Assembly (NCBI GenBank): GCA_965207225.1
Contig: CBDBLV010000005.1
Span: 1,920,001-1,984,000, forward strand
Direction: 5' to 3'
Length of the DNA: 64,000 nt
Source: Dehalococcoidia bacterium
GTDB taxonomy: Bacteria; Chloroflexota; Dehalococcoidia; Plut-88900
The first letter of the stretch is position 1, and every line of letters starts with the position of its first letter. The notes under the pieces are model-generated. The model saw only the letters and a list, made by a program, of their open reading frames with translations, did not search any database and was not told the DNA's origin. Shown here piece by piece: positions 5,823 through 53,038 of the stretch. The translations under genes were made by a program, and so were the position numbers.

Positions 5823-7478
5823 TCAGGATCGCCGGAGTGAAGTTGGATCACCCATCCACAATTCGAAAATGGTTCTGCCTATCGTCAACTCAGGCCCACC
5901 AGAGACTCCCATACTGCGAACTTTCCGTCCCAGGGCGACCTCGGCAAGGTCGGCCCCGCCTATGGGAGAGTCCTCCGGGGTGGGGATTGTGTAGTGGATC
6001 GTGGCCCTGCCGGGCCTAACCTCGATCTCGCTGACGAAGGACCGGATGAAGGCCCGTGACTCGGTGATCTCGCTCTCCCTGAGGAACTCGCTCATGTCCT
6101 GGGCGAAGGCGGTGATGGTCTCCACCTTGTCCAGCGTCACCCTTCGCTTCGACAGGACGGCTCTGGCCTCCTCAGCGGCGGCCTCCAGCTTCTCCTTGCG
6201 CTCCCGGAGCTCCTTGATGCGGTCCGTGGCGTCGGACATCTCGATCTCGGTGGTCTCGATGACCTGCCAGATGCGTCCCAGCCGACGCTTCACGTCCTCA
6301 AGCTCCTCGTCGATGACCTTCAGCCGCTTGCGGTGCTCCCGGGCCACACCGTCCATCTCTTCGTCCACCATCTTCACCAGGTCCCGGATGTTGGACTCGA
6401 TGAGGATGTTGTCCCGGATGTTCTCGACGATGAGGCCCTCGAAGCGCTTGGCGTTGAGCCTTGGGGTTTCGCAGGTTCCCCTGCCCTTCTTGAGCAGGGA
6501 ATGGCAGACGTAGTAGGTGTATTTGCCGCCCTTGGCCTCGGCGGCGGTGAGGGCCTTGCGGCACCGCCGGCACTTGACCAGCCCACTCAGCAGGTAGGGG
6601 CTGGAGGCCCGGCGGGGGTGGACGACCTTGGGGGCGCGGGACTTGAGCAGCCGTCTCACCTGCCGGTACTTGCTCTTGGAGACCAGGGCGGGGAACGCCT
6701 TCTCCACCCTGACTGGCTCGGCTTTGTCCTTGGACTTGGTTCCCCACACCAAGACGCCCGTGTAGGCTTCGTTGGTCAGCATGGTGTGGACGGCGCTCTT
6801 GAGCCACTGCTTGCCCCTGGGAGAGGGGACGCCCTCTGCGTTGAGGGTCTTCGTGATGTCCAGGGAGCTTTGGCCCTGGAGGGCCATGTCGAAGACGCGC
6901 TTGACCACGGCGTCGGCGGGCGGGTCGGGCTCCAGCCTGGGGCGCTTCTTGGCCCCGTCCTGGACGTAGACCTTGCGGTAGCCGTAGGGTGCGAAGGTGG
7001 CGACCCAGAAGCCACGTGAGGCCGCCTCCCGCATTCCACGGGAGACCTCCTCTGCAAGATTGGCGCTGTAGAACTCGTCCACGGACTCGATGATGGCCTC
7101 CATGAGCTTGCCGGTGGGGGAGTCGTCGGCGTGTTCGGTGATGGAGACGACGCGGATGCCCCGCCTCCTGAGCATGGACTTGAAGGCGACGGCGTGCTCC
7201 CGCTTGCGGGTGAATCTCGAAAACTTCCAGACCAAAATCTCCTGGAACGGGGCCTCGGGCTTGCCCGCCTCGTCCAGCATCTTCTGGAACTGGGGCCTGT
7301 CTGCGATGCGGCCGCTCTCGGCCTCGTCCACGTACTCCCTTGCGACGACGTAGCCGTTCTTCTGGGCGTAGTCCCTGAGCGCCCGCATCTGGGCGGCCAC
7401 GGACAGGTCCACGTCCTGCCGGTCGCTGGACACCCTGGCGTACAGGGCGACGGGTATCAGGTCAGTTCTCTCGTTCAT
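5823..7478 (-). CDS. Large serine recombinase (resolvase + recombinase + Zn-ribbon domains)
   Basis: YARVSSDRQ catalytic motif, SRFTR, LLSGLVKCRRC...YYVC zinc ribbon, coiled coil; RBS GAGGAGG. Confidence 0.95.
   Translation of the reverse strand: MNERTDLIPVALYARVSSDRQDVDLSVAAQMRALRDYAQKNGYVVAREYVDEAESGRIADRPQFQKMLDEAGKPEAPFQEILVWKFSRFTRKREHAVAFKSMLRRRGIRVVSITEHADDSPTGKLMEAIIESVDEFYSANLAEEVSRGMREAASRGFWVATFAPYGYRKVYVQDGAKKRPRLEPDPPADAVVKRVFDMALQGQSSLDITKTLNAEGVPSPRGKQWLKSAVHTMLTNEAYTGVLVWGTKSKDKAEPVRVEKAFPALVSKSKYRQVRRLLKSRAPKVVHPRRASSPYLLSGLVKCRRCRKALTAAEAKGGKYTYYVCHSLLKKGRGTCETPRLNAKRFEGLIVENIRDNILIESNIRDLVKMVDEEMDGVAREHRKRLKVIDEELEDVKRRLGRIWQVIETTEIEMSDATDRIKELRERKEKLEAAAEEARAVLSKRRVTLDKVETITAFAQDMSEFLRESEITESRAFIRSFVSEIEVRPGRATIHYTIPTPEDSPIGGADLAEVALGRKVRSMGVSGGPELTIGRTIFELWMGDPTSLRRS
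5871..5922 (+). other. att junction 1 (E0|E1), 52 bp, central CC at 5896-5897
   Basis: ggttctgcctatcgtcaactcaggc CC accagagactcccatactgcgaact; 25-2-25 geometry; lies inside the 3' end of recombinase 1. Confidence 0.85.
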
Positions 7479-7505
7479 CGGTCTCGTCCTCCTCTCTATG
7501 TTCCT

Positions 7506-9782
7506 CTAGGTCTTGGAGATTCCTTCAACCGAACCGTCGGCGTTCTCCACGGCGATCCGAACGATCTCGACAACCTCGTCCAGAAAAGCCTGCGTGGGCG
7601 GATCCATGACGGAGCTGATTGACGGCGCTGCTGCTTCGTAGATGTGCGCCATCCGATCCGCTCGTTGAAAACTGGACCCCGCGCCCCTGAACCCATAGGC
7701 GGCTTGCCACTCGCTGGGATGAGATCGGATTAGTCGCCGCTCAGCGAGGGCGCGGATGCCGCCGAGCACCTCTTGGCGTATCTGATCAATGGCGGCCCTG
7801 CCCTCATCATCATCTGCCGGAGCTCTGGTCCATCCGGCGGGTTCGTTCAGCCAATGGGATGCACTCTCTTGAAGCTCCCTGATCAGATCGGCAACCGGCC
7901 TCAGGGTGTCATATTCGTTGTCCCACAGGTTGGCAATACGTCGGCATAGCGCTTTGACCCGAGCCCAGTGTTGCTTCTTGGTGCCCTCATGGTAGCTGAG
8001 GCCCAGCCTGCCCCACCAGGGACCCTTAAACCCATCGGTGGCGTCACGCAGAGCGAGTTCCAAACGAAGGACGTTGTAAATCGGCGCGGCTGTTACCGGC
8101 TCGGGAGGCTTCGCGGCCTCCTGCATTTCGACCAAAAGCTTGTGCATCTGGTCGAGGATGGGGGTTGGGATGCTCTCGGTGGGTCGATTCAATCCTCCAA
8201 GATAAAAGTTGCGGCTGTCCAGTCGACGCTCCAGTATCTCCGTGACCGGCGCCCCCAGCGCATCCCGCATCCCGGACAGGGCGTTGCCGATTGAGGCCTG
8301 GACGTGGTTGACCTTCTGGGTATAGCTGCGGAGATTGTCGCCCCGTACTTGGTCGAAATGCGTGAAGACAACACCGAGCTTGTGACCGTGGCCACCGGTG
8401 CCGACGGAGCGCAGGAGTTCGAGGGGAGCAGCCTGCATAGGCGATTGAGCGTTGTCTATCAGCAGGATCATGTCTGCCTCTTGGAACCTGTCGGTTACCT
8501 TGGTGGAGATGCTCGTTGCCTCCCTAGCTGAGTGACCAAGGCCTTCGCCGTCCAGCAGAACCAGCCGGCGGTCACCGTCTTGCAGTTTAGTCGCAGCGGG
8601 TTGGAATGGGCCGCTTACGCGGATGCCGTCAACCAGAGGCGTCAGCAACCGCCCAAATTGCTGGGAATGGTTGCCAGTGAACCATCTCACCTGTCGTAGA
8701 AAGGCAGTTCGGTCACCCTCTTCGTAGTACCATAGTATGGGCCACCCCGTTGCCTCTCGCTCAAAGTCGCCCTCTGCAATCAGACCAAAGCGTTCCTCGA
8801 TGGACTCCATGATGTCCACGGAGATATCCGTGAATCCCTGATTTTCGTACAGCGCATCGGTGAACTCTTCTATCCACGCGTCCCTTCGCGTGGCGCTATC
8901 CATGTCATCGTACTTGCCGCTTCTCGGCGCGATCTGTTCTTGGACCGCCATTGCGATTTCTCTGATGCGAACGACGTACCCTCTCAGGTGCTCATTGTTC
9001 TTTGTCAACTCGCCAACGGCGACAACTTCGTCATCTGGCAGCGTCACCGCGGGACCCTCTTCATCTTCGAACAGGCGATCCATCTCATGGTCTGGTGACT
9101 CTTGCTGCCATGTGCCGAGTGGATATGAGAGACGAAAGCGTTGTTCGGGATGCTCCAACAGTGCTCCGGCGATGCCCTCATCGTCTTGACCTCGAATTAC
9201 ACTGGCGCATGCCTCTTCGAGGCACTCGTCGACAGCTCCCCTTACTTCGTGCTCGTTCATGAACGTGATCACAGACTTGAAGGGGCCTGTCGCCGTGGTG
9301 ATAATCTCAATGTCAGCAGTTGTGGTCTTTGCCGTTGACGTAGAGGGGAAACGGTCCCGCGTGTGGTCGGAGCCGATAAGTTGGCGCAGTAGCGTGGTCT
9401 TGCCTGCTCCCGTCGACCCAACGAGCATGACACGGGCATAGCCGTCATCAGGCGTCGGCAGAGGAAGCATCTCTTCCCTGCGCTCCTTGGACTTGATCTT
9501 GCCGACCTCAATGCCGTCGAAGAACGCTGAGACGACGATGGCGTCGAATCGCTGCGACGCCTCGGTGCGTCGGTCAAGGGACCACCAGGATGGGTCAGCG
9601 AGGATTTCATTGAGATGCCCGACCAGATGGTCCGCCGTGGAGTCATCTGCCGTGCCAAGACCTCGACGCACCTTCAGACCAAACTTGCCCCGGGCGTCGG
9701 TCCTGCGCGGATGGTTGAATGTTACGCTCCAACCGGGACGGTTAGAGCGCGTCTTGCTGGCCGTGTAGATTGTCGTCGTCAT
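7506..9782 (-). CDS. P-loop GTPase (dynamin-like/TRAFAC), hypothetical
   Basis: G1 GSTGAGKTT, G2 KTTT, G3 DGEG, G4 THFD. Start moved to ATG 9782, which follows an AAGGAGG RBS. Confidence 0.7.
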   Translation of the reverse strand: MTTTIYTASKTRSNRPGWSVTFNHPRRTDARGKFGLKVRRGLGTADDSTADHLVGHLNEILADPSWWSLDRRTEASQRFDAIVVSAFFDGIEVGKIKSKERREEMLPLPTPDDGYARVMLVGSTGAGKTTLLRQLIGSDHTRDRFPSTSTAKTTTADIEIITTATGPFKSVITFMNEHEVRGAVDECLEEACASVIRGQDDEGIAGALLEHPEQRFRLSYPLGTWQQESPDHEMDRLFEDEEGPAVTLPDDEVVAVGELTKNNEHLRGYVVRIREIAMAVQEQIAPRSGKYDDMDSATRRDAWIEEFTDALYENQGFTDISVDIMESIEERFGLIAEGDFEREATGWPILWYYEEGDRTAFLRQVRWFTGNHSQQFGRLLTPLVDGIRVSGPFQPAATKLQDGDRRLVLLDGEGLGHSAREATSISTKVTDRFQEADMILLIDNAQSPMQAAPLELLRSVGTGGHGHKLGVVFTHFDQVRGDNLRSYTQKVNHVQASIGNALSGMRDALGAPVTEILERRLDSRNFYLGGLNRPTESIPTPILDQMHKLLVEMQEAAKPPEPVTAAPIYNVLRLELALRDATDGFKGPWWGRLGLSYHEGTKKQHWARVKALCRRIANLWDNEYDTLRPVADLIRELQESASHWLNEPAGWTRAPADDDEGRAAIDQIRQEVLGGIRALAERRLIRSHPSEWQAAYGFRGAGSSFQRADRMAHIYEAAAPSISSVMDPPTQAFLDEVVEIVRIAVENADGSVEGISKT

Positions 9783-9822
9783 AGCCCCTCCTTGCGTTGT
9801 TCTGTGTTGTACGAACCATCGC

Positions 9823-9851
9823 ATTATGGACCTCAATTTCTGGAATGTCAA
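9823..9851 (-). promoter_or_regulatory. Sigma70-type promoter for the GTPase (and possibly the recombinase)
   Basis: TTGACA-17 nt-CATAAT on the minus strand. Confidence 0.75.
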
Positions 9852-9989
9852 GTCCTTGGGGAACAACTGAGAACAACCTCCTCTATCTACTGGGGAATTG
9901 CCCATGGGCAGCCCGCTTGTGCGGAAATGAGTGATACGTCAAGCCCATCGGGGCACCTGGGGCTGGCGAGTCCTGCGACGGGGTTCGGC

Positions 9990-10382: not shown

Positions 10383-12425
10383 TCATTGCGCAGGCTGATA
10401 CGTCAGGGCGAGGGGCCTTCTGTGGAGGGAATACGGCGGGGGCAGTATCCACGAGTCGCCCAGGACGCCATGCTCGGCAAGGGTCTCGGTGTTGCTGGTG
10501 ACGATGGGCACGTCGTCCTCTGCGTCGGCGATGTCGAGGAAGGCGGTCTCGCTGTCGGGGGACTCGAAGACGAAGAGCACGTGGGGCAGGTGTCCCTCGT
10601 GGTCTCTCTTTGCCCAGCCGCTGGTGAAATAACGTCGGTAGGACCTCAGGCGTTTGGGGATGCGTTTCGGCGTGGTGGCCCTCCGCTCGAACTCCAGCAG
10701 GTAGGGACGCCACTCGCCCTTGTACTCCAGGGTGAAGGAGGCGTCGGGGTGGATGGCGTAGGCGGTCTGGTCGTGGCGGTATCCGATGCTGGAGCGGTGG
10801 GTGGGAAGCAGGTCGAACAGGTCGTGGTCCGGGGAGTTGGCGACCTCGGCTGAGAGGGCGGAAGCGAAGCCGACGACGCCGGCGTGGTGGCGCAGCTGGG
10901 CGGCCAGGGCGCGCAGGGCTGTCCCGACGTAGACGGAGGGCTTCCTGAGGGTGAGTTCTGGGCTCCAGCGGTCGAGGGTGAGGCCGACGGCGGCCCGGTC
11001 CCGGCGGGCCAGGTGCGTCAGTCCCTCGTCGGTGAGCACGAGGAGGGAGCCGTCCTCCCGCACTAGGCCGTGCTCACGGAGGGCGCGGAGCACCTGGTTG
11101 ACCCGGCGCAGGGTGACGCCGCCCATGAGTCCCGCAAGCTGCTCACGGGTGCACAGGGGCCATGCCGACAGCAGGTCCAGGGCGTCCTTCCCGGCGCGGG
11201 TGAGTTGCGCCGATGGGGATGACGTGAGCTGCTCGCCAGGCTCCGGCATGGCGGCCTTCACACTGGAGGAGTAGAGGTCTTCGAGATCGGGCCTCGGGTT
11301 GTCGCGGAAGGACGAATGGGACGAGTCCAGCAGCCGATCCATCCACGCCAGGATGCTCCCCAGGGACGCGCCAGGGTCTATGAGCACCGGCGGGTCATTG
11401 TCCCGTCCGTCTCCGCACTGTTGCCAGACGGCTCCGGTGTGGTCTCCGGCCAGAAGCTCTCCTTCCGTCGCCGCAAAGGTCCTGCGGTGCTCCGACGGGT
11501 CGCCCAATGAGCGGATGGCCCTTCGGGTGGCCTGGTCAGCATGGGTCAGGACGAGCGTGGCGAACGGCCTCTCGCGGCTGGGGAGATGCTCGACGCTCCT
11601 GAGGCGGTAGCGCAGGTTGGAGGTGGGCAGGGTCGCACCCTGGCGGATGACGCCGATGGAGCGTCCACCGGACAGGGTGACCAGCATGTCGTAGGGGCCG
11701 CTGCGGTAGTGGTCCACGCGCACGGGCTTCTCCTGCGGGTCTGCGTCGGCGATCATGGCGGCGACGCGGTAGAGGACGGCCACGGCGTCCATGCGCTCGG
11801 CCAGCAGCCGGAACCATTGCCTGGACACGGGGTACTCGCTGAGGAAGTAGTCCGTGCCGTGCTCGATCCGCCCTCCGGCGACGATGCCCTGCTTCGTGGG
11901 GAAGTAACGGCGCTGGGGGCGGGAGCCGAGAACGCTCAACTGGTGCGACACGGAGTCCACCAGGCCCCGCTTTGCGAGGTTGCTCAGCCGGTCACGCAAC
12001 GTGGAGGCGGGGACACGTCCGAAGCGGGAGAGCTCGTCCACGGTGGCCAGGGGCGTGGCGCAGACCAGCCGCAGAGCGTCCTCCAGGGTCTCGGACAGGC
12101 GCTTGGGACCGGTCGCCGCTGGGCCGCTGTCCTTCAGCCGCCGCCTGGCCTGCGCTTGGAGTATCAGCCGCTCCTCGGCGTCCTCCACCGCCTCTGGTCT
12201 GTCGCCCACTTGCTCCAGCACCGCGCTGGGGATAGCGCGCCCGGCGTGGCCCCGGTCGAGGAAACGCCACAGGGTGTGGCGGGAGACGCCGAGGGTCTCG
12301 GCCGCCTTGGGCCTGCCATGCAGCACGGCGTAGGTGCGCACGTAGTCCCGGACCGCCCCGTCGAGGTCCGCTCCAGCCTGCGCTGCGCCGTTGACTCTTG
12401 CTTCTTGTGGGTTCGTGACTGCCAA
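10383..12425 (-). CDS. Replication-relaxation (Replic_Relax)-like protein, type A
   Basis: N-terminal HTH, two wHTH modules, C-terminal HH...IHPDA...LLEFER...KRLRSY PD-(D/E)xK-like module; close paralogue at 44711-46756. Confidence 0.75.
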   Translation of the reverse strand: MAVTNPQEARVNGAAQAGADLDGAVRDYVRTYAVLHGRPKAAETLGVSRHTLWRFLDRGHAGRAIPSAVLEQVGDRPEAVEDAEERLILQAQARRRLKDSGPAATGPKRLSETLEDALRLVCATPLATVDELSRFGRVPASTLRDRLSNLAKRGLVDSVSHQLSVLGSRPQRRYFPTKQGIVAGGRIEHGTDYFLSEYPVSRQWFRLLAERMDAVAVLYRVAAMIADADPQEKPVRVDHYRSGPYDMLVTLSGGRSIGVIRQGATLPTSNLRYRLRSVEHLPSRERPFATLVLTHADQATRRAIRSLGDPSEHRRTFAATEGELLAGDHTGAVWQQCGDGRDNDPPVLIDPGASLGSILAWMDRLLDSSHSSFRDNPRPDLEDLYSSSVKAAMPEPGEQLTSSPSAQLTRAGKDALDLLSAWPLCTREQLAGLMGGVTLRRVNQVLRALREHGLVREDGSLLVLTDEGLTHLARRDRAAVGLTLDRWSPELTLRKPSVYVGTALRALAAQLRHHAGVVGFASALSAEVANSPDHDLFDLLPTHRSSIGYRHDQTAYAIHPDASFTLEYKGEWRPYLLEFERRATTPKRIPKRLRSYRRYFTSGWAKRDHEGHLPHVLFVFESPDSETAFLDIADAEDDVPIVTSNTETLAEHGVLGDSWILPPPYSLHRRPLALTYQPAQ

Positions 12426-14161: not shown

Positions 14162-14512
14162 ATGCCTTTGGGCGACCTGATCAATAGGGGCCGGATAGCC
14201 AAGCAACTCGGTCTACGAGCTCTAGCTAGACAGATTGGCATTGCCCCATCCTACTTGGCTGATATCGAGAATGACCGTAGGGTTCCTTCAGAGGGAGTGC
14301 TCCGCAGTATTTCGGAGACACTTGATCTGGACTTCGACGGATTGATGCAACAGGCAGGACGATTGGGGGAAGGAGTTGAGTATTACCTCCGCCAAGAGAA
14401 GCTAGCAGGTCAGCTTTTCCGCAAAGTGGCCGAAACTAACCTTGACCGAGAGGGTCTCCAGAAGCTCTTGGACAGGCTTGAGCAACTGGGGCCTCCAGAG
14501 GATGAGCAATGA
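14162..14512 (+). CDS. XRE-family HTH regulator (CapH-like)
   Basis: LRALARQIGIAPSYLADIENDRRVP HTH; overlaps the next gene (ATGA). Confidence 0.88.
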   Translation: MPLGDLINRGRIAKQLGLRALARQIGIAPSYLADIENDRRVPSEGVLRSISETLDLDFDGLMQQAGRLGEGVEYYLRQEKLAGQLFRKVAETNLDREGLQKLLDRLEQLGPPEDEQ

Positions 14513-15252: not shown

Positions 15253-15349
15253 ACTAGAAGGGAGTGTGTATGAGCGGGAGTAGGCGTTGAGAGCAGTGGC
15301 TTAGGGTAGAAGCCGGACGAGCCTTTCCAGAATATCACGGAGGTTTCCC

Positions 15350-15592
15350 ATGACAACAGGAAGGTACGAATTCAAAGTCAACGGGGTTGAGTTCAGGACG
15401 GACACTCCTGAGCTGACTGCATCCCAGATTCTGGCGATTGCCATTGAGGGCAAAGCGGTTCCTAATCCTAAAGGAGCAGACACATACATTCTGCGCGGTG
15501 ACAAGGGTGAGTACCAGGGAGGTACCCGGATTGACCTAACGGTCGACAACGTGTTCATAACCGTGCCGACAGGACCCACGCCTGTGGCATGA
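15350..15592 (+). CDS. Ubiquitin-like (multiubiquitin-type) protein
   Basis: 80 aa beta-grasp pattern FKVNG...LTASQILAIA...IDL...FITVP; sits before E2- and E1-like genes. Confidence 0.75.
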   Translation: MTTGRYEFKVNGVEFRTDTPELTASQILAIAIEGKAVPNPKGADTYILRGDKGEYQGGTRIDLTVDNVFITVPTGPTPVA

Positions 15593-15605
15593 GTGGAGGT
15601 GAGGC

Positions 15606-43869: not shown

Positions 43870-44710
43870 ATCGTCCAACTGGCATTCAACCTCCGACCCG
43901 AGGCGGGGGCGTCCGGGGGACCCCATCCAGGGTCTTCGAAAATCAAGGCGGTCGGCGCAGTCCAGGGGGTGTACACGAGTTTAGGTTTTGTCGGTGATGC
44001 ATCAAACGGGTCGTGGGCAAGCTGGAACTGGGGCAAATCGGCCTCCTATAGGGATAATCAGTGAACACTTTGATGAAAGTCCCAAGTTCGGTTGGAAATG
44101 ACAGAAAGGTGCTTGAGGTGGGGGTGCATGACGCGGTGCCATAGTGTCCCCCCATGACAAAACGGAGCAAAAGAGGCGCTTGAGGTGGGGGTGCGTGACG
44201 TCGACCGGATCGGCATATGGAGGCGGTTTTTCGTATCCCTGAAGACTATGGCGCATCCGTGATCCGGGGCATGCTGTGGTGACCGGTCAGCCCGTCGAGA
44301 GCGTCCAACAGGTCGAGAAGGTGATGGTCGGCGGTCCCGCCGGTTCTGCAACGAATTGTACTTTTGGGAGCTGTTGGGGGCTGACACGGTGAGTGAGGGG
44401 AATGCCCTTTTGTCCCCTACAGGAAGTCCTGGGAACGGCTCGGTGGGGAAGTTGGAACATGCTCCCGTGGCACGTTGCGGCTGAGTCGGGGTGCTCCGGG
44501 TCGGGCGGCTGTAGGCAGTGACCGTAGCTGGAGAGCTATGGTGGCGGGCGTGCATGACGCAGCGGCGAGAACGGCCTGACCGGTCGGTTCTGCAACGGAT
44601 TGTACTTCTGAGCGCGTAAGGGGAGATATGTGACCGGTCATGTATGCAAGTTGTCCCAGCAAGGCTGCTGGGACAACCCCTATTGGAAGGGTTCGGAACG
44701 GAAACGGCGG
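43870..44710. other. Motif-rich non-coding region, type A (candidate origin)
   Basis: TTGAGGTGGGGGTGCRTGACG at 44113 and 44180; GACCGGTC at 44281, 44578 and 44632. Confidence 0.55.
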
Positions 44711-46756
44711 TCATTCTGTCCTCTGATACGTCACGGAAAGCGGCCTTCTGTGGAGGGAATACGGCGGCGGGAGTATCCAGGCGTCACCCAGGATGCCATG
44801 CTCGGCAAGAGCCTCGACGTTGGAGGTGACGATGGGCACATCGTCCTCTGCGTCGGCGATGTTGAGGAAGGCCGTCTCGGAGGCGGAGGACTCGAAGACG
44901 AACAGCACATGGGGCAGGTGTCCCTTATGGTCTCGCTTTGCCCAACCGCTCATGAAGTAGCGGCGGTAGGACCTCAGGCGTTTGGGGATGCGCTTCGGCG
45001 TGGTGGCTCTCCGCTCGAACTCCAGCAGGAAGGGACGCCATCTGCCGTGGTACTCCAGGGTGAACGATGCGTCGGGGTGGATGACGTAGGTGGTCTCGTC
45101 GTAGCGGTAGCCGATGCTGGAGCGGTGTGTCGGCAGCAGGTCCCACATGTCGTAGTCCTGGGATTTGGCGACCTCGGCGGAGAGGGTCGAGACGAAGCCG
45201 ACCACACCGGCGTGGTGGCGCAGTTGGGACTTCAGGGCGCGCAGGGCCGTCCCTGCGTAGACCGAAGGGTTGGAGTGTGCAGGTTCGGGGCTCCATCTGT
45301 CGAGGGTGAGGCCCACGGCGGCCCGGTCACGGCGGGCCAGGTGCGTCAGCCCCTCGTCGGTGAGCATGAGCAGGGAGTCGTCCTCTCGCACGAGATCGTG
45401 CTCACGGAGGGAGCGGAGCACCTGGTTGACCCGGCGCAGGGTGACGCCGCCCATTAGTCCCCCGAGCTGCTCGCGGGTGCACAGGGGCCATGCGGAGAGC
45501 AGGTCCAGGGCGTCCTTCCCGGCGCCGGTAAGCTTTGTCGAGAGAGCAGACGTAAGCTGCTGAGTAGGCTCCGGCATGGCGGCCTTCACTCTGGAGGAGT
45601 AGAGGTCTTCGAGATCGGGCCTCGGGTTGTCGCGGAAGAACGAATGGGACGAGTCCAGCAGGCGCTCCATCCAAGCCAGGATTTCCGCCAGGGATGTGTC
45701 GGGGTCGATGAGCACGGGAGGGTCCTCCCCCAGGCCGCTGCCGCACTGCTGCCAGACAGCGCCGGTGTGGTCTCCGGCCAGAAGCGCTCCTTCGGTCGCA
45801 ACGAAGGTCCTGCGGTGCTCCGATGGGTCTCCCAATGAGCGAATGGCCCTGCGGGTGGCCTGGTCCGCGTGGGTCAGCACCAGGGTGGCGAAGGGCCTCT
45901 CCCGGCTGGGGAGACGCTCGACGCTTCTGAGGCGGTAGCGCAGGTTGGACGTGGGCAGGGCCGCCCCCTGGCGGACGATGCCGATGGAGCGGCCGCCCGA
46001 CAGGGTGATGAGCGTGTCGTAGGGGCCGCTGCGGTAGTGGTCGACACGCACGGTGTCTTTGTGGGGGTCTGCGTCGGCGATCATGGCGGCGACGCGGTGG
46101 AGGACGGCCACCGCGTCCATGCGCTCGGCCAGCAGCCGGAACCACTGCCTCGACACCGGATACTCGGTGAGGAAGTGGTCCGTGCCGTGCTCGATCCTCC
46201 CTCCGGCGACGATGCCCTGCTTTGTGGGGAAGTACCGTCGTTGGGGGCGGGAGCCGAGCACGCTCAGATGGTGTGGCACGGAGTCCACGAGGCCCCGCCT
46301 GGCGAGCTTGTCGAGGCGTTCTCGCAGGGTGGAGGCGGGAATGCGTCCGAACCGGGCCAACTCCTCCACGGTAGCCAGGGGTGTTGCGCACAGCAACCGC
46401 AGGGCGTCCTCAAGGGCTTCGGACAGGCGGATGGAGCCGGACGCCGAGCCATTCGCTCGCCGCCGGGTCGCCTCCCAGAGACGCGCCTCGACGATCAGAC
46501 CCTCCCTGACCGTCTCCACTTCCTTGACGGTTCGGCCCACGCTGTTCATGAGCGCGCGGGGAATGGCTCGTCCCGTGTGGCCTTGATTGAGGAAGCGCCA
46601 CAGGGTGTGGCGGGACACGCCGAGGTCCCTGGCCGCTCGGTCGCGTCCATGCCACGTAGCGTAGGTGCGTACGTAGTCCCGGACCGCCCCATCGAGGTCC
46701 GCTCCGGCCTGCGCTGCGCCGTTCGACGCTTGTGTTCGTGGATTCGTGACTGCCAA
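44711..46756 (-). CDS. Replic_Relax-like protein, type A
   Basis: Close paralogue of 10383-12425; TTG start assigned by alignment. Confidence 0.75.
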   Translation of the reverse strand: MAVTNPRTQASNGAAQAGADLDGAVRDYVRTYATWHGRDRAARDLGVSRHTLWRFLNQGHTGRAIPRALMNSVGRTVKEVETVREGLIVEARLWEATRRRANGSASGSIRLSEALEDALRLLCATPLATVEELARFGRIPASTLRERLDKLARRGLVDSVPHHLSVLGSRPQRRYFPTKQGIVAGGRIEHGTDHFLTEYPVSRQWFRLLAERMDAVAVLHRVAAMIADADPHKDTVRVDHYRSGPYDTLITLSGGRSIGIVRQGAALPTSNLRYRLRSVERLPSRERPFATLVLTHADQATRRAIRSLGDPSEHRRTFVATEGALLAGDHTGAVWQQCGSGLGEDPPVLIDPDTSLAEILAWMERLLDSSHSFFRDNPRPDLEDLYSSRVKAAMPEPTQQLTSALSTKLTGAGKDALDLLSAWPLCTREQLGGLMGGVTLRRVNQVLRSLREHDLVREDDSLLMLTDEGLTHLARRDRAAVGLTLDRWSPEPAHSNPSVYAGTALRALKSQLRHHAGVVGFVSTLSAEVAKSQDYDMWDLLPTHRSSIGYRYDETTYVIHPDASFTLEYHGRWRPFLLEFERRATTPKRIPKRLRSYRRYFMSGWAKRDHKGHLPHVLFVFESSASETAFLNIADAEDDVPIVTSNVEALAEHGILGDAWILPPPYSLHRRPLSVTYQRTE

Positions 46757-47087
46757 TCCGATGCTCCAGCTTGCTGATGTCCCAACATCCCATCTTGAAC
46801 GGGAAATTGCTCGCATGTAATGCCTTGCAAGCCATTGTTATGGAATGGGTTTTGTGGTAGCGGCCGAGGTCACGGAGGATGTTCACGCTCTCTCAAAGGG
46901 CGCGGGACTCCACTCCGACCGATCCGCCGACCTTGTCTTGGCTTTCCTTGATGGTTGCCGGACAGGGGGCCTCCAATTAAGTCTGGGAATGTTGAGAGGG
47001 CTTGCCAACGCCCTATAACGGGTGTCATGCGCGTCACCTCTAGGCCACCGGATTCCGGTGCCTGCACGAAGTGGTTGAGAAAGCGAC

Positions 47088-47300
47088 TCATCCGCTAGCC
47101 TCCTCTTCTAGCGGTGCCTCTGACGATGCCGAGACGGCTTGGGTGGCTTCCCGTCGTAGGTGGGCGCGGACGATCATCCTGGCCAGGATTCGCAGCCCGC
47201 ATCGCAGTTGCTCCTGCTGCCCAGCCGTGTACGCCACCGCCGATCCGTTCGCGGACGTGGCGGCGCACTCTGACGGTCTCTTTCTATCGGCCCTACTCAT
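47088..47300 (-). CDS. Small conserved backbone protein (GLRILARMIVRAHL motif)
   Basis: Paralogue of 12611-12850; RBS GAGGAG. Confidence 0.65.
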   Translation of the reverse strand: MSRADRKRPSECAATSANGSAVAYTAGQQEQLRCGLRILARMIVRAHLRREATQAVSASSEAPLEEEASG

Positions 47301-47734
47301 CCCGCTCCTCCGTTGTCGGTCTCGGCGGGATTGCAGATTGGCCTCTCCGCCGTCAATGCCGGATATCCGGCGTCCTGAGACCAGTCTGAGGGCCTGAGAG
47401 AGCGAGCGTTATCCCTCGGAGGGGACTACATCGATGTAGTGGGCCTTGCAAGCCCCTTGATGTATCAGCCCCGTGATGGGCCACACGCCTGTGGAGGCCT
47501 ACGTGATGTCAGTGGGCCTTTCACAGGGGAAGTAAACTCGTGCAAGTTGCAGATTCATGCTGGCTCAAAGCTGGAATCGGAAGGGCACGTCTCTCTACCG
47601 GACCAAGACAGCGAACATTTTGTGTCAGCGGCCGGTTGCGAACGGATTCGCAAACCTACCGTAACGGAAACGACGGAGCTTACAGGCGGGGAAATCGGTA
47701 ACCCCAATGCGATCGTGCTAGTCGCGCGGCTGGC

Positions 47735-47976
47735 TCATGTCCTCTTCCAGCGATACCGCAGAGTGTACCCAGGAACACAATCTACTACTAAGAGGCCTCT
47801 CTTCTTGAGAAACTGCTGGGCGTTCTGAACGTCATGCTTCCAGTTCCCCTGACACCATTGAGGTACGCGGGCGTATATACTAGGGGGTATAGATCCTCCG
47901 TTAACAAGCCGTCCTTATGCCTAGTCAGGCTTAGGACATCCAGAACCGCTTTGCGGAATGCCTCGTTCCTTGTCAT
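47735..47976 (-). pseudogene. Frameshifted small winged-helix gene
   Basis: Removing 2 nt from GTATATACG (~47872-47880) joins MTRNEAFRKAVLDVL...LYPLVY to ARVPQWCQGNWKHDVQNAQQFLKKRGLL...RWKRT*. Confidence 0.5.
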
Positions 47977-48074
47977 GTCACCCCCCAAGCCGGTAGCGGC
48001 GATTGATCCGCCTCGCCATTCGAACAGTGTAAGTGATGCAACTGAGATCGGCTATGACCCCTTGCTTCATGCGT

Positions 48075-48650
48075 CTAGCTGTGCTGGTGTGGACACTTGG
48101 TGTAACCTGGTACCGAGTAGACTCCCGCTGGAATGCTGATCTGCTTGCCGACATTGATGTATGGATTGCTCCGCATGGCTTTTTCATCGTTGATGACGAA
48201 GTAGCCATTGGTGTCAAAGAACACCGCCGGGAAACTATCAGGCTTCTGGTACGGTATGCCAGTTTTCGAGAAGTACCCTTTCGCGCAGTTGAGGCCATGT
48301 TCCCTCAAGAGTCGAGGTCCGATTCGTTGGTGAGTGCGTCCCTGTGATTGAGGACCATGAACCGCATTCTCAGGCGTGTTGCGTAAAGTTGGACTATCCT
48401 CCCTAGGTGGCGTAGTGCCCGAGTGTCGCGATTGGTCCAATCCCAACACGATCCTCAGGACGCGGTTCGGAGTACCAGGAGAAAAGAGAGCCAATCCTTC
48501 TTCGGCAGCTCGCTTGGCCAATATCTGTTCAACCTCTCCATCTACTTGGATCGAGATCTCCACTTGCAACCTCCTTGGCATAGGCATGGTTTTACCATAC
48601 CATGCTGTGGGCCAACGAGTCAAGCTCCGCGCCGTTGGTTCACTTAGCAC
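48075..48650 (-). CDS. Hypothetical protein (likely start MPMPRR ~48587)
   Basis: N-terminal RHH-like part; C-terminal FPAVFFDTNGY...IPAGVYSVPGY segment reminiscent of domains fused to HNH nucleases. Confidence 0.5.
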   Translation of the reverse strand: MLSEPTARSLTRWPTAWYGKTMPMPRRLQVEISIQVDGEVEQILAKRAAEEGLALFSPGTPNRVLRIVLGLDQSRHSGTTPPREDSPTLRNTPENAVHGPQSQGRTHQRIGPRLLREHGLNCAKGYFSKTGIPYQKPDSFPAVFFDTNGYFVINDEKAMRSNPYINVGKQISIPAGVYSVPGYTKCPHQHS

Positions 48651-48753
48651 TGGGTTGATCCTAAGCGGTGCCGGGCGATCGGTGAGTCTGTCATCTTCCG
48701 TCGGTGGCGGGATCGAGGAGAGAGGGAACCCTGCTAGGCTGTGAACAGGTGTA

Positions 48754-48787
48754 TTGACTATGTTTCCGTGTTTTCCATATTATGGAA
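48754..48787 (+). promoter_or_regulatory. TA promoter with operator palindrome
   Basis: TTGACT -35 box; ttccata-t-tatggaa palindrome over the -10 region. Confidence 0.55.
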
Positions 48788-48816
48788 CCGAGTAGCCATC
48801 TAGGGGAGGGCCAGCG

Positions 48817-49119
48817 ATGACCACCAAGAAGAAGAGACTCACCCTTGACTTGGACCCCACCTTTCAGCGGCGGCTGAAAGCCATCTCCGCGCTCAAGGGC
48901 GTCAGCATGCGGGGGTACTGCCAAGCCGCCATCGATCGGGAATTGACAAGGGACGAAGCCAACGGCCTAGGCGATCTGTTGGTTGACAAGCCGGACCACG
49001 AGATGTTCGCAGAGCTCCAGCAGGAGATATTCGGGGACAAGACACTACCTGGGAACTCAGCCGACCTGATAAGAGAGGCCCGCGAGATTAGAGAGGCCGA
49101 GATGGAGCGATGGGCATGA
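48817..49119 (+). CDS. RHH-type antitoxin
   Basis: KRLTLDLD...LKAISALKGVSMRGY; C-terminal NSADLIREARE. Confidence 0.8.
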   Translation: MTTKKKRLTLDLDPTFQRRLKAISALKGVSMRGYCQAAIDRELTRDEANGLGDLLVDKPDHEMFAELQQEIFGDKTLPGNSADLIREAREIREAEMERWA

Positions 49120-49580
49120 GCGGGCTTGTCGTCGTCGATGCGAGCTTGGCTGTCAAGTGGTTGGTGAGGGAGGAGCACACCGACCAGGCTCTGGCGATTC
49201 TCCGGGCGTGGCATGACGATGAGGTAACCCTGGCCGCTCCTTACCTGCTAGCTTTCGAGGTCGCCAACTCTCTCCATCGTAAAGTGGTTCGGGGCCAGTT
49301 GAGTGTCGGAGACAGCACCCGAATGATCCAACGACTGCTCAGCTCGAGGCTTGAGTTGCATCAGACTGACGGGCTTTACGCGAGAGCCCTAGAGTTGGCA
49401 AGCGAACTCCAGCAAGGGGCAGTCTATGACGCCCACTACTTGGCGCTTGCCGAGGAATTTGGCTGTGAGTTGTGGACTGCCGACCAGAGGTTCTACAAAG
49501 CAGCAAGTCAGGAAGTCAACATCGTCCGCTGCCTAGGAAATCCCGGCAATCCACCTACTGGCGAAGGCCGGGGACCGTAA
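49116..49580 (+). CDS. vapC: PIN-domain (VapC-like) toxin
   Basis: VVDASLAVKW...EVAN...YDAHYLALAE...LWTAD. Confidence 0.9.
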   Translation: MSGLVVVDASLAVKWLVREEHTDQALAILRAWHDDEVTLAAPYLLAFEVANSLHRKVVRGQLSVGDSTRMIQRLLSSRLELHQTDGLYARALELASELQQGAVYDAHYLALAEEFGCELWTADQRFYKAASQEVNIVRCLGNPGNPPTGEGRGP

Positions 49581-50353
49581 TGGCCATCAGAACGGAGATA
49601 CTACCGTCGCCATCGTCGTTGGCCTTCTTGAGGCGTTGCTTTCGGTTCGTCAGCGTGGAGTGGCCCCATGCTGAACGCGAGCGGTTGCCTGATGAGGGCT
49701 TCGAACAGCGGTTCCGCGAAAGTTGCGTCCAGAATCTGGATGGATGGATTATCTCGGAGCAGCGCGAATTCCACCTTGGGGCAGGGCTAATTACCGCGTC
49801 AGGCGTATCTCATGAGATAGACATCGTGGCCCGGTGGTCAAACGCAACCACTATATTGGAGGCAAAGAATCTCGGCGGTATGCCTGGCAAGAACGACATC
49901 ATTGTCTTCTTCGCCAAGATCATTGATTATCTGCTTGCAAACCCTGAGCTAGCTCTGTACGACCTTTGTTTAGCATTCATGTCTAGGAATTCGTTCGAAT
50001 CAAGTGCACTGGCCACCTGTTTAGGTCTCGGAATACATCCGGTCTCATCGGACATACGCCCACTTCCAGTCCTAGTGGATAATGCGATTCGCATGGAATC
50101 GGAAATACGGAGTGGGTTGGCTGTGCCGAGTGAAACGCTTGAACGATTTGAGGATTTGTGCGCCTCGCTCAACAATTTAGGTTCCAGACTACACGAGGTC
50201 TGGCCTGACAATCGATTTGGTTATCTGTCTGAGGATAGCATTCTCGTTAAGGCAGTCACTCCGTTGCCCTCGCATGAATTGGCCAGCCAACTTCGGCAAG
50301 TCAACAGCGACTGTATCGAACTTATCAATACATTCAGGTCTGTATCCTCCTGA
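49580..50353 (+). CDS. PD-(D/E)xK (Mrr-like) nuclease-domain protein
   Basis: FEQ...SGVSHEIDIV...ILEAK; ATG overlaps the PIN stop (TAATG). Confidence 0.65.
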   Translation: MAIRTEILPSPSSLAFLRRCFRFVSVEWPHAERERLPDEGFEQRFRESCVQNLDGWIISEQREFHLGAGLITASGVSHEIDIVARWSNATTILEAKNLGGMPGKNDIIVFFAKIIDYLLANPELALYDLCLAFMSRNSFESSALATCLGLGIHPVSSDIRPLPVLVDNAIRMESEIRSGLAVPSETLERFEDLCASLNNLGSRLHEVWPDNRFGYLSEDSILVKAVTPLPSHELASQLRQVNSDCIELINTFRSVSS

Positions 50354-50368
50354 GGTATAAAGGAGTAT

Positions 50369-51466
50369 TTGACTATGAATATAAGCAGCTACAACATCAC
50401 TGAAGTCGGATATCACTACATAGGCTTGCGTGTGCTTGATGGTATGGGAACCTCAGCCCAGCGCAGCCAGCAAGTGGAAGTCATATCCAGAAACGTCCGG
50501 AAATTTGTGAGCGACAGAGCTTTGCGTCTCATGCTGCCAGATCCCAGGGGAACATTCCTCACGGTAGGCCAAAAGATCTGTGAGGAACTGGTTCACTTCC
50601 GATTTGCCCTCTCGGAACGTGGCGGCCCTTACGAATTGACTACCACTGGCCGGGATGTTCTCGGTTTACTGAAAGAACAGCGGTACCTAGAGCTCCGTAA
50701 AGTGATGGCTTCTGTCCACTTAAGAACCTACGCCAATCTGCGTGCTATAGTACAGGCCCATCTTGATGGTGGAGCGATCTGGCAGCCCGTCGTGAGCTCC
50801 GTCCATGTCGACCAGCCGGGATATTTGCAGGGACTGCTTGAGCCTACTTTCGAGCGAGATGCGTCTGCCGCACTGGCTAAGGCCCTTGATCAGAACGCGT
50901 TGCCACCTCCCAAAAAGATAGAGGACATCTTACGTGCCAAAGTCATCACACATACGATGCCTGCGCAACGTATGAGGGTGGCCCTTTTCCGAGCCATCTG
51001 TGACCGCTTGGTTAGTCTCAGGCTGCTCAACAAAGCGCGCGCCGTCCGCCAGAAGTGCGAATTCGAAAAGACTTATTCGCCTTGTGTGGTGCAACATCCG
51101 ATGAAACCCTGGTATTCGCCTTTGCAAATACCGCTGAATAATGGCGAGGCGTACCGGATATTTGTGTCCGAACCAGAGGCAACCGATCCCAATTACCAAG
51201 ATGCCCTGTTGTCTGGGATTGACCAAGCTCTCTCTGAGATGTCTCCAATAGGAGGGTACTACGACATTCCAGACCTCCGTGACATTGTGTGCGAATACCT
51301 GATGATCCCGGAAGCCGCTTTTGACGACGGCCTGAATTGCTTGCTTGACCGACAGCCAGCAGTTTTGTCGGTGGGCTTACAGTACGACAAGATTACTGCT
51401 AGGCGGAGACCTCTCGTCCGAGGCCGTCAAAACGCTCAGCTGCACAACTTGATAAGGAGAATCTGA
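50369..51466 (+). CDS. Hypothetical multi-winged-helix protein
   Basis: ELVHFRF...YELTTTGR wHTH-like signature; AAGGAG RBS; TGATG overlap with the next gene. Confidence 0.55.
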   Translation: MTMNISSYNITEVGYHYIGLRVLDGMGTSAQRSQQVEVISRNVRKFVSDRALRLMLPDPRGTFLTVGQKICEELVHFRFALSERGGPYELTTTGRDVLGLLKEQRYLELRKVMASVHLRTYANLRAIVQAHLDGGAIWQPVVSSVHVDQPGYLQGLLEPTFERDASAALAKALDQNALPPPKKIEDILRAKVITHTMPAQRMRVALFRAICDRLVSLRLLNKARAVRQKCEFEKTYSPCVVQHPMKPWYSPLQIPLNNGEAYRIFVSEPEATDPNYQDALLSGIDQALSEMSPIGGYYDIPDLRDIVCEYLMIPEAAFDDGLNCLLDRQPAVLSVGLQYDKITARRRPLVRGRQNAQLHNLIRRI

Positions 51467-52821
51467 TGCTCAATCTCCCCAGAAGACAAACTGCTCCGAT
51501 TCCGTCTCCATATGGACGGTTGGGACTCACCGACTTACCTTTCCCGTCTGAGCCGCTGTTGGACCCATATAGCAACGACCCTCGTCGTAATGGTTCCATC
51601 TACGCCCAATCTCCGGTGAAAGATGCCATCGAGAAATTCGACCAATTGCTTATCCGCCCCAATGACTTTCTGAACCGCGCGAAGATCGCGTCACTGTGGG
51701 CTGCTGGAGATAGCATAAGCGGTCGCGGAATGGGGAAGACCGCTCTGTTGCGATTCTTTCAGCAACGGATTAACTCGGATTGGGGCCTAACTCAGTTTGA
51801 GGGGCAGTTCTCAGCAGCGGTCATCTATGTGGCGTTTCCAGACCAGGTGGACCGCCGATGGATGGAGCAACTGGCGTGGGCTGCTCTTGTGGACACTTGC
51901 CAGAACGGGGTCCTAGATGTGGCAAGGGCTGCTCTACGCCGTGAATTCCTTACCGATGATCAAGTGATGTCTGTGATCGACGATAACGGAAACACTGACT
52001 GGGGCAGGCTGCTCAACGATGCTGTTCTCGCAGACAACGGCATACCTACCGGTGAGTTGGATCATAGTTTAGAGGCTCAATTGCTCAATGACGGAGTGGA
52101 GAGAGGACCAGCACGAGCTTTGGCAGCGGGCACATTTGAGGAGTTCCTACGCAACTTACGCAGAGACGGAAATCTTCGCCCTTACTACATCCCGCGCGAT
52201 ACAAAGGGTCTGGACTATTCCCGCGCGCTCTTCTTCAACGACATCGTACGTTATCTCCGTTCTGCTGGTTTTGCGGGAGGCTACCTGTTCGTAGACGACA
52301 TCGAGAACTTGACCGACCAGATGGCGCGTAGACATCGAGTCGAATTTGCCAAGGAGTTTGGTCTCTGCACGGTGCGCCCGGGGTACGCAAACACTGAGTA
52401 CGGGTTCTTCTCATGTGTGCTAACCACTCATCAGCAGTCCGTGGCGGGGATATCTCAAGCTTGGAGTGAAGCTGGTTTAGCAGCAATGGCTCGCCTAGAT
52501 CCAGGTGCGCCCACGTCAGTAGAACTCCCATTGCCGACGCCAGATCAAGCCAGGGCTATCATCATTGCACACTTGGACCACTTCCGCGTCAACGATGAAG
52601 ACAATGGGACCATAAGGCCCTTCACTGAAGACGGATTGCAAGCTCTGGTTGGGGTTAGCCAGCATCCCCGTATGCTGCTGGCTAACGGAGCACATATTGT
52701 AATGCAAGCCGTACAAGGCGACTCAACCGATATAGACGATACCTTGGTACAGGAGGCGTTGAGCGGTATGGCAACTTCCTCTGGCCCAGACTATACGGAA
52801 GGACTCGAGGGAGTTCTATGA
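51466..52821 (+). CDS. P-loop AAA+/STAND-like ATPase
   Basis: GRGMGKT Walker A, YLFVDDIE Walker B, PFTEDG...HPRMLL lid. Confidence 0.7.
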   Translation: MLNLPRRQTAPIPSPYGRLGLTDLPFPSEPLLDPYSNDPRRNGSIYAQSPVKDAIEKFDQLLIRPNDFLNRAKIASLWAAGDSISGRGMGKTALLRFFQQRINSDWGLTQFEGQFSAAVIYVAFPDQVDRRWMEQLAWAALVDTCQNGVLDVARAALRREFLTDDQVMSVIDDNGNTDWGRLLNDAVLADNGIPTGELDHSLEAQLLNDGVERGPARALAAGTFEEFLRNLRRDGNLRPYYIPRDTKGLDYSRALFFNDIVRYLRSAGFAGGYLFVDDIENLTDQMARRHRVEFAKEFGLCTVRPGYANTEYGFFSCVLTTHQQSVAGISQAWSEAGLAAMARLDPGAPTSVELPLPTPDQARAIIIAHLDHFRVNDEDNGTIRPFTEDGLQALVGVSQHPRMLLANGAHIVMQAVQGDSTDIDDTLVQEALSGMATSSGPDYTEGLEGVL

Positions 52822-52986
52822 TTCCCTAGGCTCCCTATCCATTGTGAAGGAAACGTGGGAGTAACTGACAATCATCAAATAGCACAGCCACGAGAGCTTG
52901 GGGCGTTGAATCCAAGCTTGATTTCCTACAACATGGGTGGGGCGGCTAACTGGACGAGTTCACAATCCCATCCAAAGCTCGAAAAC

Positions 52987-53038
52987 AGTTCTGCCTACCG
53001 TCAACTTAGGCCCACCAGACTTGATAAAATCAAGAACC
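52987..53038 (+). other. att junction 4 (E3|E4), central CC at 53012-53013
   Basis: agttctgcctaccgtcaacttaggc CC accagacttgataaaatcaagaacc; the right arm is identical to that of junction 2. Confidence 0.88.

Follow-up and report, generated by a model that had tools for sequence, protein, structure and literature searches.

Four similar sites of 52 bp, all in the same orientation, punctuate a 64,000-nt stretch of DNA from a Dehalococcoidia bacterium (hereafter the window; plain coordinates refer to it, and C1 to C5 denote the contigs of the assembly to which it belongs, G000, with 4.03 Mb in 5 contigs). The locus raises the question of what the units between these sites are, how they came to stand in a row and by which route they might reach other genomes. 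An earlier reading of the letters alone (the sequence-only reading) had described a tandem array of elements, each with a large serine recombinase (LSR) and a gene of the Replic_Relax type. In our analysis the array of LSR elements was borne out, since type-specific arms pair across each unit and each unit has its own LSR. Very probably, the window lies in a tandem array of integrative elements, each with an LSR of its own, and the 3' end of a tRNA-Met(CAU) gene serves as the anchor of this array.

Attachment arms and the tRNA anchor

The four plus-strand sites were recovered at the positions given by the sequence-only reading (5871, 24361, 41991 and 52987), each with the layout 25-CC-25 and the core GCCCACCA, and the pattern RGTTC-N18-GCCCACCA-N16-GAACY had 4 matches in the window versus 0 in 100 dinucleotide-preserving shuffles. 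Within sites 1 to 4, the left arm and the reverse-complemented right arm were identical at 13, 12, 15 and 13 of 25 positions, respectively, whereas a right arm and the left arm of the following site agreed at 19/25 positions in E1, E2 and E3 alike, as the units between the sites are called here. The loose symmetry within sites and the strong repeats across units that had been described before were thus both reproduced, the latter including the outer runs of 10/10, 12/12 and 16/17, and so were the unit sizes of 18,490, 17,630 and 10,996 bp.

The right arms of sites 4 and 2 are identical (25/25), the left arms of sites 4 and 1 share 22 of 25 positions, and three arm types could be distinguished. 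Type A is found at sites 1 and 4 on the left and at site 3 on the right, type B at site 1 on the right and at site 2 on the left, and type C at sites 2 and 4 on the right and at site 3 on the left. Based on the pattern and the comparison of arms, and written with a slash between the arms, the sites along the window read A/B', B/C', C/A' and A/C'. Site 1 (5871..5922, plus strand like the others) joins the right end of a preceding element, E0, to the left end of E1. At site 2 (24361..24412) E1 is followed by E2, and at C4:9934 this end of E1 is found a second time, next to another C-type element. Site 3 (41991..42042) is the point at which two LSR genes converge, and at site 4 (52987..53038) E3 ends on the right and a further element, E4, begins. 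The reconstructed arms form attP sites of about 50 bp with an imperfect dyad around a central dinucleotide, together with hybrid attL/attR sites, and we interpret the hybrid junctions as attP arms of adjacent elements joined to each other. The crossover could be located only to the common block of 8-10 bp, in which the centre of the dyad points to CC as the crossover dinucleotide.

The three LSRs of the window contain Resolvase, Recombinase and Zn_ribbon_recom domains; PF00239 (E ~1e-33), PF07508 and PF13408 scored above their cut-offs in these proteins and in the LSRs of E0 and E4, and all five open reading frames (ORFs) are open and full length. The LSR gene of E1 (551 aa; 5823..7478, minus strand) extends past the crossover with its last 24 codons, which lie in E0, and that of E2 (554 aa; 40450..42114, plus strand) with its last 32 codons, which lie in E3, while the LSR ORF of E3 (644 aa; 41667..43601, minus strand) has 116 codons beyond this point. 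Read over the predicted circle junctions, the three proteins would have 543, 540 and 545 aa instead of their integrated lengths, and the codons of the E3 LSR past ~528, which are antisense to the E2 LSR gene, probably lie outside the native protein. Over its 116 antisense codons (41667-42016), the E3 ORF overlaps the E2 LSR gene at its 3' end. Such an extension is seen again at all C/A' junctions of the genome, so that automated gene calling will make these recombinases too long.

Arm type co-varies with LSR clade. Type A arms adjoin 13/13 full-length LSRs that are closest to the LSR of E3 (as the A' arm), and type C arms adjoin 13/13 LSRs closest to that of E2. Both LSRs with 94-100% identity to the E1 LSR are adjoined by B' arms, and more distant relatives of this protein (65-71% identity; C5:379081 and C5:589627) stand next to other arm types or another tRNA core.

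The core GCCCACCA corresponds to the last 8 nt of a tRNA, that is, the 3' strand of the acceptor stem, the discriminator A and CCA. Within the window neither a tRNA-like gene nor an Rfam match was found. In the whole assembly, Aragorn detected six tRNA genes ending in GCCCACCA (Ile-gat, Lys-ctt, Val-cac, Val-tac, Val-gac and Met-cat), and an A' or B' arm with an LSR gene lies directly 3' of five of them, Val-cac being free; tRNA-Ala(tgc), with the core GCTCCACCA, is likewise occupied. The anchor of the array under study is tRNA-Met(CAU) (C5:1911928-1912002), 8 kb to the left of the window, which is still called as an intact gene because every right arm starts with ACCA. As assembled, the order is tRNA-Met/A'-E0-A/B'-E1-B/C'-E2-C/A'-E3-A/C'-E4-C/x, with five elements in ~78 kb. 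E0 (13.9 kb) starts at the tRNA-Met/A' junction (C5:1911972), and its right 5.9 kb (1..5897, plus strand), with A-type arms, open the window; E4 (17.3 kb) ends at C5:1990340, window coordinate ~70340 and ~6 kb outside the window. The limits of 5871..53038 set by the sequence-only reading were therefore too narrow at both ends. Two further tRNA loci were noticed. A tRNA-Gln(ttg) gene with another 3' end (GGCAGCCA) directly precedes an LSR gene with 65% identity to that of E1 (C5:589542-591192), and the family therefore reaches tRNAs with different cores. A tRNA cluster, Val-Leu-Arg-Val (C5:130086-130504), stands directly before an array that starts with tRNA-Val(tac)/B'.

Distribution and turnover of the family

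The window had been presented as one special array, and this did not hold, as LSR elements sit at several tRNA genes across the genome. A tblastn and genome search gave 34 LSR matches in G000, some of them fragments, compared to 0-8 in 8 genomes of the same genus and 14 in one genome of the same family. In G000, 18 complete elements with matched arms were counted, of 9-51.5 kb each, which together make up 346,471 bp or 8.6% of the assembly. Among the 46 confidently typed sites of G000, 6 are tRNA junctions (5 with A', 1 with B'), 18 could be typed on both sides and 22 on one side only. The 18 doubly typed junctions consist of 7 A/C', 7 C/A', 3 B/C' and 1 A/B', and none of them is homotypic.

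Outside this genome, a scan with one genome per species yielded at least 404 relatives of the A-type LSR, of which the best 80 were taken for typing of the locus. All 80 belong to metagenome-assembled genomes of Dehalococcoidia, Chloroflexota or Tepidiformaceae. The 3' end of the LSR gene was paired with the 3' end of a tRNA at 38 of these loci (Ile, Val, Lys, Met, Ala and others), with a C arm at 18, a B arm at 5, another partner at 18 and a contig end at 1. In the foreign loci, the neighbour arm of an A-type LSR was thus C or B in 23 cases, and an A-like variant, judged by eye, in at most 1-2. The C' arm with the core was present in 34 of 401 genomes of the class, with 0 matches for a reversed control pattern, and at 30 loci in other genomes its left partner was a tRNA (10), an A arm (4), a B arm (5) or another sequence (11). 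A single C/C' junction occurred among the 401 genomes (L157; G133:C1:1706402-1706447), with only the last ~61 codons of a C-type LSR upstream of it.

The tRNA-Met gene with the same 3' end is kept in 8/8 genomes of the genus. In the closest relative, G008, the DNA directly after tRNA-Met is collinear with G000 from C4:29101 onward, with 95.2% identity over 19,950 bp, and C4:29101 is the start of the native flank at a C/x' junction. The site in G008 is therefore empty and synteny breaks at the core, which agrees with the prediction of the sequence-only reading that breakpoints in related genomes would fall there. In G001, tRNA-Met is followed by a remnant of 5.4 kb (tRNA/A' ... B-like/x') without a recombinase. 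The arrays of G008 at tRNA-Val(tac) (25.9 kb) and tRNA-Lys(ctt) (~121 kb) have no element in common with the G000 arrays at the same genes, the similarity being restricted to the level of the LSRs. Comparison of these genomes indicates that the arrays turn over rapidly between close relatives.

Formation of the arrays and transfer of the elements

Protein families in the window were assigned with Pfam (47 ORFs) and PHROGs (23 proteins). Pfam found one recombinase gene and one Replic_Relax gene in each of E1, E2 and E3, with different cargo, as had been claimed. The PF13814 domain of the Replic_Relax proteins of E1 to E4 scored 31.5, 45.5, 37.6 and 42.4 bits, respectively, versus a cut-off of 25.3, and MarR/HTH domains precede it. 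This is the domain listed for MOBC relaxases in the cited part of the survey by Coluzzi et al. (PMC5357655). MOBC is a non-canonical relaxase family with kinship to restriction endonucleases, and the Replic_Relax family, whose name covers plasmid replication as well as relaxation, is placed in the PD-(D/E)XK superfamily. The C-terminal half of the E2 protein was modelled with a predicted local distance difference test score (pLDDT) of 91.8 as a winged helix followed by an alpha/beta domain, and among 43 sequences the residues H135, D181, E198 and E200, numbered as in the modelled fragment, hardly vary. Foldseek matched FokI and R.BspD6I weakly (E 4e-3 to 6e-3), VIA-align matched Cdn1 and VC1899 over the C-terminal domain (Z 8.8 and 8.6) with top matches that are all winged-helix regulators, and a sequence search of the PDB with Replic_Relax gave no match.

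In the window, no family of type IV secretion systems (T4SS), coupling proteins, VirB4, FtsK or capsids was detected by these Pfam and PHROGs searches. This part of the sequence-only reading stands, while its statement that the transfer route is unexplained has to be modified, as the MOBC-family Replic_Relax protein and VirB4-like and type IV coupling protein (T4CP)-like genes in sibling elements provide a candidate. In a sibling on C4 (L113), adjacent genes for a VirB4/TraC-like ATPase and a TrwB/TraG-D-like protein are followed by Replic_Relax and the LSR gene; no further components of a mating pore were identified. AAA_10 matches occur at 8 places of G000, 7 of them in ORFs of 344-794 aa at ~3 kb from a Replic_Relax gene (two of the 7 being an exact duplicate), and the eighth is the chromosomal FtsK ORF. 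E1 to E4 each combine an LSR and a PF13814 protein of their own with the absence of mating-pore families from the window, as is characteristic of integrative mobilizable elements (IMEs). Since siblings have VirB4-like and T4CP-like genes beside Replic_Relax, the window units look like IMEs that would be mobilizable with conjugative-type helpers in the same genome.

Two other candidates were rejected. A prophage or satellite nature was discarded, as no structural or packaging PHROG was found among 23 window and 4 sibling proteins. The 799-aa P-loop protein of E1 (7506..9905, minus strand), present in one copy in the genome, was considered as a coupling protein or VirB4; it is unrelated to the VirB4-like and T4CP-like proteins of the siblings, sharing with them only the Walker A motif, and has no informative family match. 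In the C-type element that follows the E1 end on C4, a repeat of 2.59 kb, distinct from the IS21-family insertion of E4 (C4:19187-21777 and four other places, 99.3-100% identical in G000), splits the Replic_Relax gene.

We propose that the attP of each element is a near-palindrome, arm-CC-arm', which its own LSR would recombine with a tRNA half plus core, the element supplying ACCA and thereby keeping the tRNA whole. A later element of another arm type would enter at a junction that still carries the core, leaving hybrid P/P' junctions, and a resident of the same type would turn this site into the LSR's own attL, which would not be used for integration. An integrase on attL/attR is locked against recombination without a directionality factor. 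The tRNA/A' junction may be attL for the A-type LSR, yet a plain attB for the C-type LSR, and an own-type attL that is unusable for integration would explain the near-absence of same-type neighbours. As an alternative explanation of this heterotypic rule, homologous recombination or the assembler might have collapsed tandems of like elements. For excision a directionality factor would be required, and an HTH_17 protein of E2 that resembles excisionases (35885..36334, plus strand) is a candidate for it. The Replic_Relax protein, as a member of the MOBC relaxase family, would then nick the excised circle, and the nicked element would be mobilised by siblings with VirB4-like and coupling-protein-like genes. 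Much more tentatively, the arm types can be seen as orthogonal LSR/att systems with one tRNA-derived core that diversified to escape site exclusion, so that only unlike elements stack, and a guild of such elements, some conjugative and most mobilizable, would build defence arrays that are anchored at tRNAs and are exchanged completely between close relatives. The tRNA-bounded 'high plasticity regions' described in Dehalococcoides may have arisen in the same way.

Several observations weigh against this proposal. E0 has no Replic_Relax gene, the Replic_Relax protein is a candidate relaxase by virtue of its family membership, and the assignments in the C4 sibling have modest Pfam scores (E 9e-13 for VirB4/TraC-like and 6e-6 for TrwB/TraG-D-like). 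The right junction of E4 is irregular, with the core GGCCCAGTG, and cuts the HerA gene of a Hma-type defence system. With 0/6 tRNA junctions, G000 suggested that elements of type C avoid tRNAs altogether and attach only to A or B ends, but this idea had to be given up in view of the tRNA/C' junctions at 10/30 loci elsewhere. From the G008 arrays at tRNA-Val(tac) and tRNA-Lys(ctt), no insertion order could be read. The G000 assembly contains no A/A', B/B' or C/C' junction, and the attP_C pattern had 0 matches in metagenome_contigs, a collection nearly blind to these organisms (the general A' pattern found 2 contigs, both tRNA/A'). Of 12 sequencing runs listed, four from one sample hold 62-71% of the words of E3 and were compared with positions 33300-53200, the other eight, labelled as sponge or marine metagenome or as coded organisms, holding 5-13%; the short-read contigs of the four runs break at every backbone repeat and none bridges site 3 or 4, so that excision is not judgeable from them, and the 'joints' listed in these runs are skips of 67-792 bp inside repeats. 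Finally, the right end of E1 has two continuations in the assembly, which switch at the core.

This last point bears on the order of the elements. C4:1-9971 and C5:1934428-1944398 (the right part of E1) show 100% identity and diverge 12 nt after the CC of site 2; beyond this copy, C4 holds a different C-type element and then the native flank of tRNA-Met, which does not follow E4. Because of the two alternative continuations, the order E0-E1-E2-E3-E4 is insecure, though each junction sequence is secure, and either E1 is present twice or the sampled population contains two variants. The chain as printed might then in part be a choice of the assembler, where E0-E1 precede the C4 element and the native flank, and E2-E3-E4 belong with the second E1 copy or population variant. 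We consider this possible, though not the most probable case: C4 opens with the exact copy of E1 and leads through another C-type element to the flank that is found after tRNA-Met in G008, other contig ends are repeats too, and short-read contigs bridge no site. On the other hand, the four sites, E2 and E3 lie within one contig and are untouched by the question of order, and both continuations share the B/C' junction structure. Elsewhere in the assembly, contig ends also copy the interiors of elements: the last 6 kb of C4 (C4:897397-903396) are a 100% inverted copy of C4:725035-731034, the start of C2 is 98.4% identical to a stretch of C4 and that of C3 98.7% identical to a stretch of C5. The assembly thus breaks at these elements.

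With regard to the point of entry, we slightly favour the tRNA-proximal junction (tRNA/P'), with older elements pushed outward, because only the tRNA half and the core are constant in every target, because the flanks past the array ends (x') share nothing after ACCA, and because remnants of decayed arms are found at the far ends of arrays (C5:1069858 and 1072733, C2:88131, and at 5.4 kb in G001), as expected if the oldest elements are outermost. In a distal 'relay', newcomers would instead enter at the far end, the left half of attB being the last outer arm plus core, and the element next to the tRNA would be the oldest. In G000, no C-type element lies next to any of the 6 tRNAs and C' arms are preceded by A arms (7) or B arms (3), and the C arm shares, by eye, a GTCCAGT run with the T-arm/acceptor region of tRNA-Val. 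However, a distal junction lacks the constant tRNA half plus core, and C-type LSRs do use tRNAs directly at those 10 loci, which include tRNA-Val(tac) and tRNA-Lys(ctt) of G008. The relay therefore appears rather unlikely to us compared to proximal entry.

It could also be asked whether initiation of replication is the main role of the Replic_Relax protein, which, with the UvrD-like helicase of C-type elements, would then drive nick-primed, rolling-circle-like replication of the circle, and the units would be integrative plasmids instead of, or besides, mobilizable elements. The breadth of the family name, weak PHROG matches to 'replication initiation by nicking' (E ~6e-6) and the retention of the UvrD-like helicase in the C-type backbone (4 copies, 87-100% identity) are in agreement with this view. 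We hold it to be doubtful, since A- and B-type elements have no helicase beside Replic_Relax, the assembly holds no separate circular contig of an element and, in the siblings, Replic_Relax directly follows the VirB4-like and T4CP-like genes, which is the usual position of a relaxase.

A fossil array, in which old integrations are fixed and present differences result from homologous recombination, deletion and insertion sequence (IS) activity rather than from the LSRs, is considerably less probable. No excision product was seen in the short-read contigs, metagenome_contigs or the 401 class genomes, and the IS21 copy in E4, the IS copies in the Replic_Relax gene of the C4 element, the irregular right junction of E4 and the lack of Replic_Relax in E0 may be taken as signs of decay. 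However, the five LSR ORFs of the array remain intact, the 9,971 bp of E1 that occur in two contexts, with the switch at the core, show 100% identity, and the closest relative, with ~95-96% identity in the flanks, has an empty tRNA-Met and wholly different arrays at two other tRNAs, which speaks for recent turnover. The likeness to an integron drawn by the sequence-only reading, a single locus that captures cassettes, fits the co-oriented sites, the common core and the variable cargo between them, but can practically be dismissed, as the window has no tyrosine integrase and there is no platform integrase, each unit (9-51 kb, with backbone genes) has its own LSR and arm type and the same elements occur at 6 or more tRNA genes; tandem accretion of integrative elements is the established name for what is seen.

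The closest described system is that of the ssrA islands of Dehalococcoides, for which the cited part of McMurdie et al. 2011 (PMC3146451) describes a tandem layout and a CcrB-like LSR of ~540 aa and proposes that the islands are mobilizable and accrete. This parallel, already drawn by the sequence-only reading, holds up. Both systems belong to the same class of bacteria and form tandem islands with variable cargo downstream of a gene for a small RNA, and DsiB, as described there, is also a left-edge, reverse-strand LSR whose 3' end crosses attL, with the stop codon outside the island, as is seen here with 24, 32 and 116 codons past the crossover. According to the same sections, the ssrA islands have a 20-bp direct repeat, compared to an 8-10 bp block plus type-specific 25-bp arms here, and a six-gene module (the DsiA small serine recombinase, a RecF-like protein, ParB, Mom, an RNAP-domain protein and a tRNA-like locus) that is absent from the Pfam matches of E1 to E4. 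Its place is taken by Replic_Relax, with or without the UvrD-like helicase. Moreover, the targets are the 3' ends of several tRNAs, the tmRNA gene of G000 (C1:198772-199125) having no arm, the orientation of genes is opposite in C-type elements, and there are many loci per genome instead of one.

Staphylococcal cassette chromosome (SCC) elements are composite islands driven by Ccr LSRs, which stack at the 3' end of rlmH and lack transfer genes of their own. They resemble the present arrays in LSR-driven tandem stacking at the 3' end of a conserved gene and differ in that one LSR per element is found here instead of a CcrA/CcrB pair, with tRNAs as targets. The window LSRs scored 66-166 bits against cut-offs of 700-900 for the CcrA, CcrB and CcrC models, the best being CcrB (126-166 versus 900). 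The IMEs of Firmicutes, as presented in the cited sections of Coluzzi et al. 2017 (PMC5357655), likewise combine a serine integrase, a non-canonical relaxase, the lack of mating-pore genes and site-specific accretion beside related conjugative elements. In contrast to what is reported there, the elements studied here belong to another phylum, have an LSR acting at tRNA 3' ends, several orthogonal arm types on one core and a far higher copy number. Tycheposons of Prochlorococcus, in the sections cited from Hackl et al. (bioRxiv 10.1101/2020.12.28.424599), are also cargo-bearing, island-building elements that sit at a few tRNA genes and at that for tmRNA; in cultures, tandem junctions as well as excision were detected, and 910/937 use a lineage-specific tyrosine recombinase. 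They differ by this tyrosine instead of serine recombinase and by other hallmark replication genes, and those sections do not describe a MOBC-like gene for them. In a literature search without subscription journals, we found no published tRNA-targeting LSR arrays with MOBC-like genes in Dehalococcoidia.

The arrays provide natural attP, attL and attR sets for related, apparently orthogonal LSRs that cross over in one tRNA-derived core, and such sets should be useful for studying how these enzymes distinguish attB, attP and attL. The near-absence of like next to like amounts to a testable rule on site choice by serine integrases. The mechanism of the ssrA islands is extended to tRNA genes and to a much wider range of Dehalococcoidia, where a single element family can fill ~9% of a genome, mostly with defence genes. 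A MOBC-type relaxase with VirB4/T4CP helpers in the same genome would be a candidate transfer route for a class in which island transfer has been unexplained, as it was left open for Dehalococcoides in the cited part of McMurdie et al. (PMC3146451).

Cargo and neighbouring genes

Judging from the families recognised, the cargo of E1 to E4 consists mostly of defence genes. In E1, the Replic_Relax (MOBC-like) protein (10383..12425, minus strand) has HTH domains followed by PF13814, and the cargo (14162..24181, plus strand) comprises a type III restriction-modification (R-M) system, with a methyltransferase and a Res helicase-nuclease, together with paired CapH/CapP-like regulators, a PIN protein, a ThiF protein (E1/E2-like) and a protein of 232 aa. 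The CapH/CapP-like pair adjoins a 125-aa protein and the 488-aa ThiF protein (14162-17446), with no recognisable cyclase, and this neighbourhood may be a ubiquitin-like conjugation defence module.

The cargo of E2 (24471..33056, plus strand) includes, besides a META-domain protein and DUF6414, a GmrSD-like nuclease with an Excalibur domain, a DUF6290-PIN pair and an Eco57I-like methylase-nuclease. It is followed on the same strand by the Replic_Relax gene (33071..34939), whose product was modelled as described above, and, after the excisionase-like gene, by the C-type backbone (36345..40390) with a UvrD-like helicase that carries a Top1 zinc ribbon, a SIMPL protein and a HI1420-like antidote protein. 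In E3, the A-type backbone (44058..46816, minus strand) consists of a 218-aa protein and Replic_Relax (44711-46816), and the cargo (47071..52821, plus strand) of small proteins, a ParD-like/PIN pair and proteins of 293, 365 and 451 aa without a family.

The ORF that opens the window (1-5715) belongs to the cargo of E0, continues from L013:18165 (C5:1918165) and encodes a giant protein of ~2,516 aa with ~70% G+C in its gene, one weak fn3 match near the start and no other family. At the other end, the left part of E4 (53039..64000, plus strand; C-type) contains a leucine-rich repeat protein, a type II R-M pair (DUF4928 restriction endonuclease and C5 methylase), Replic_Relax (59191-61020) and an IS21-family istB/istA insertion (61202-63237) that sits in the backbone of the element. 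The HerA/Hma region to the right of E4 has no DNA match in G008, G004, G001 or G011. Across the right junction, the LSR of E4 continues in frame into HerA, giving a fused ORF of 1,057 aa (L014:4772-7945; C5:1988772-1991945) in which the HerA part lacks ~80 N-terminal profile positions, and HmaB-like and HmaC-like genes come next.

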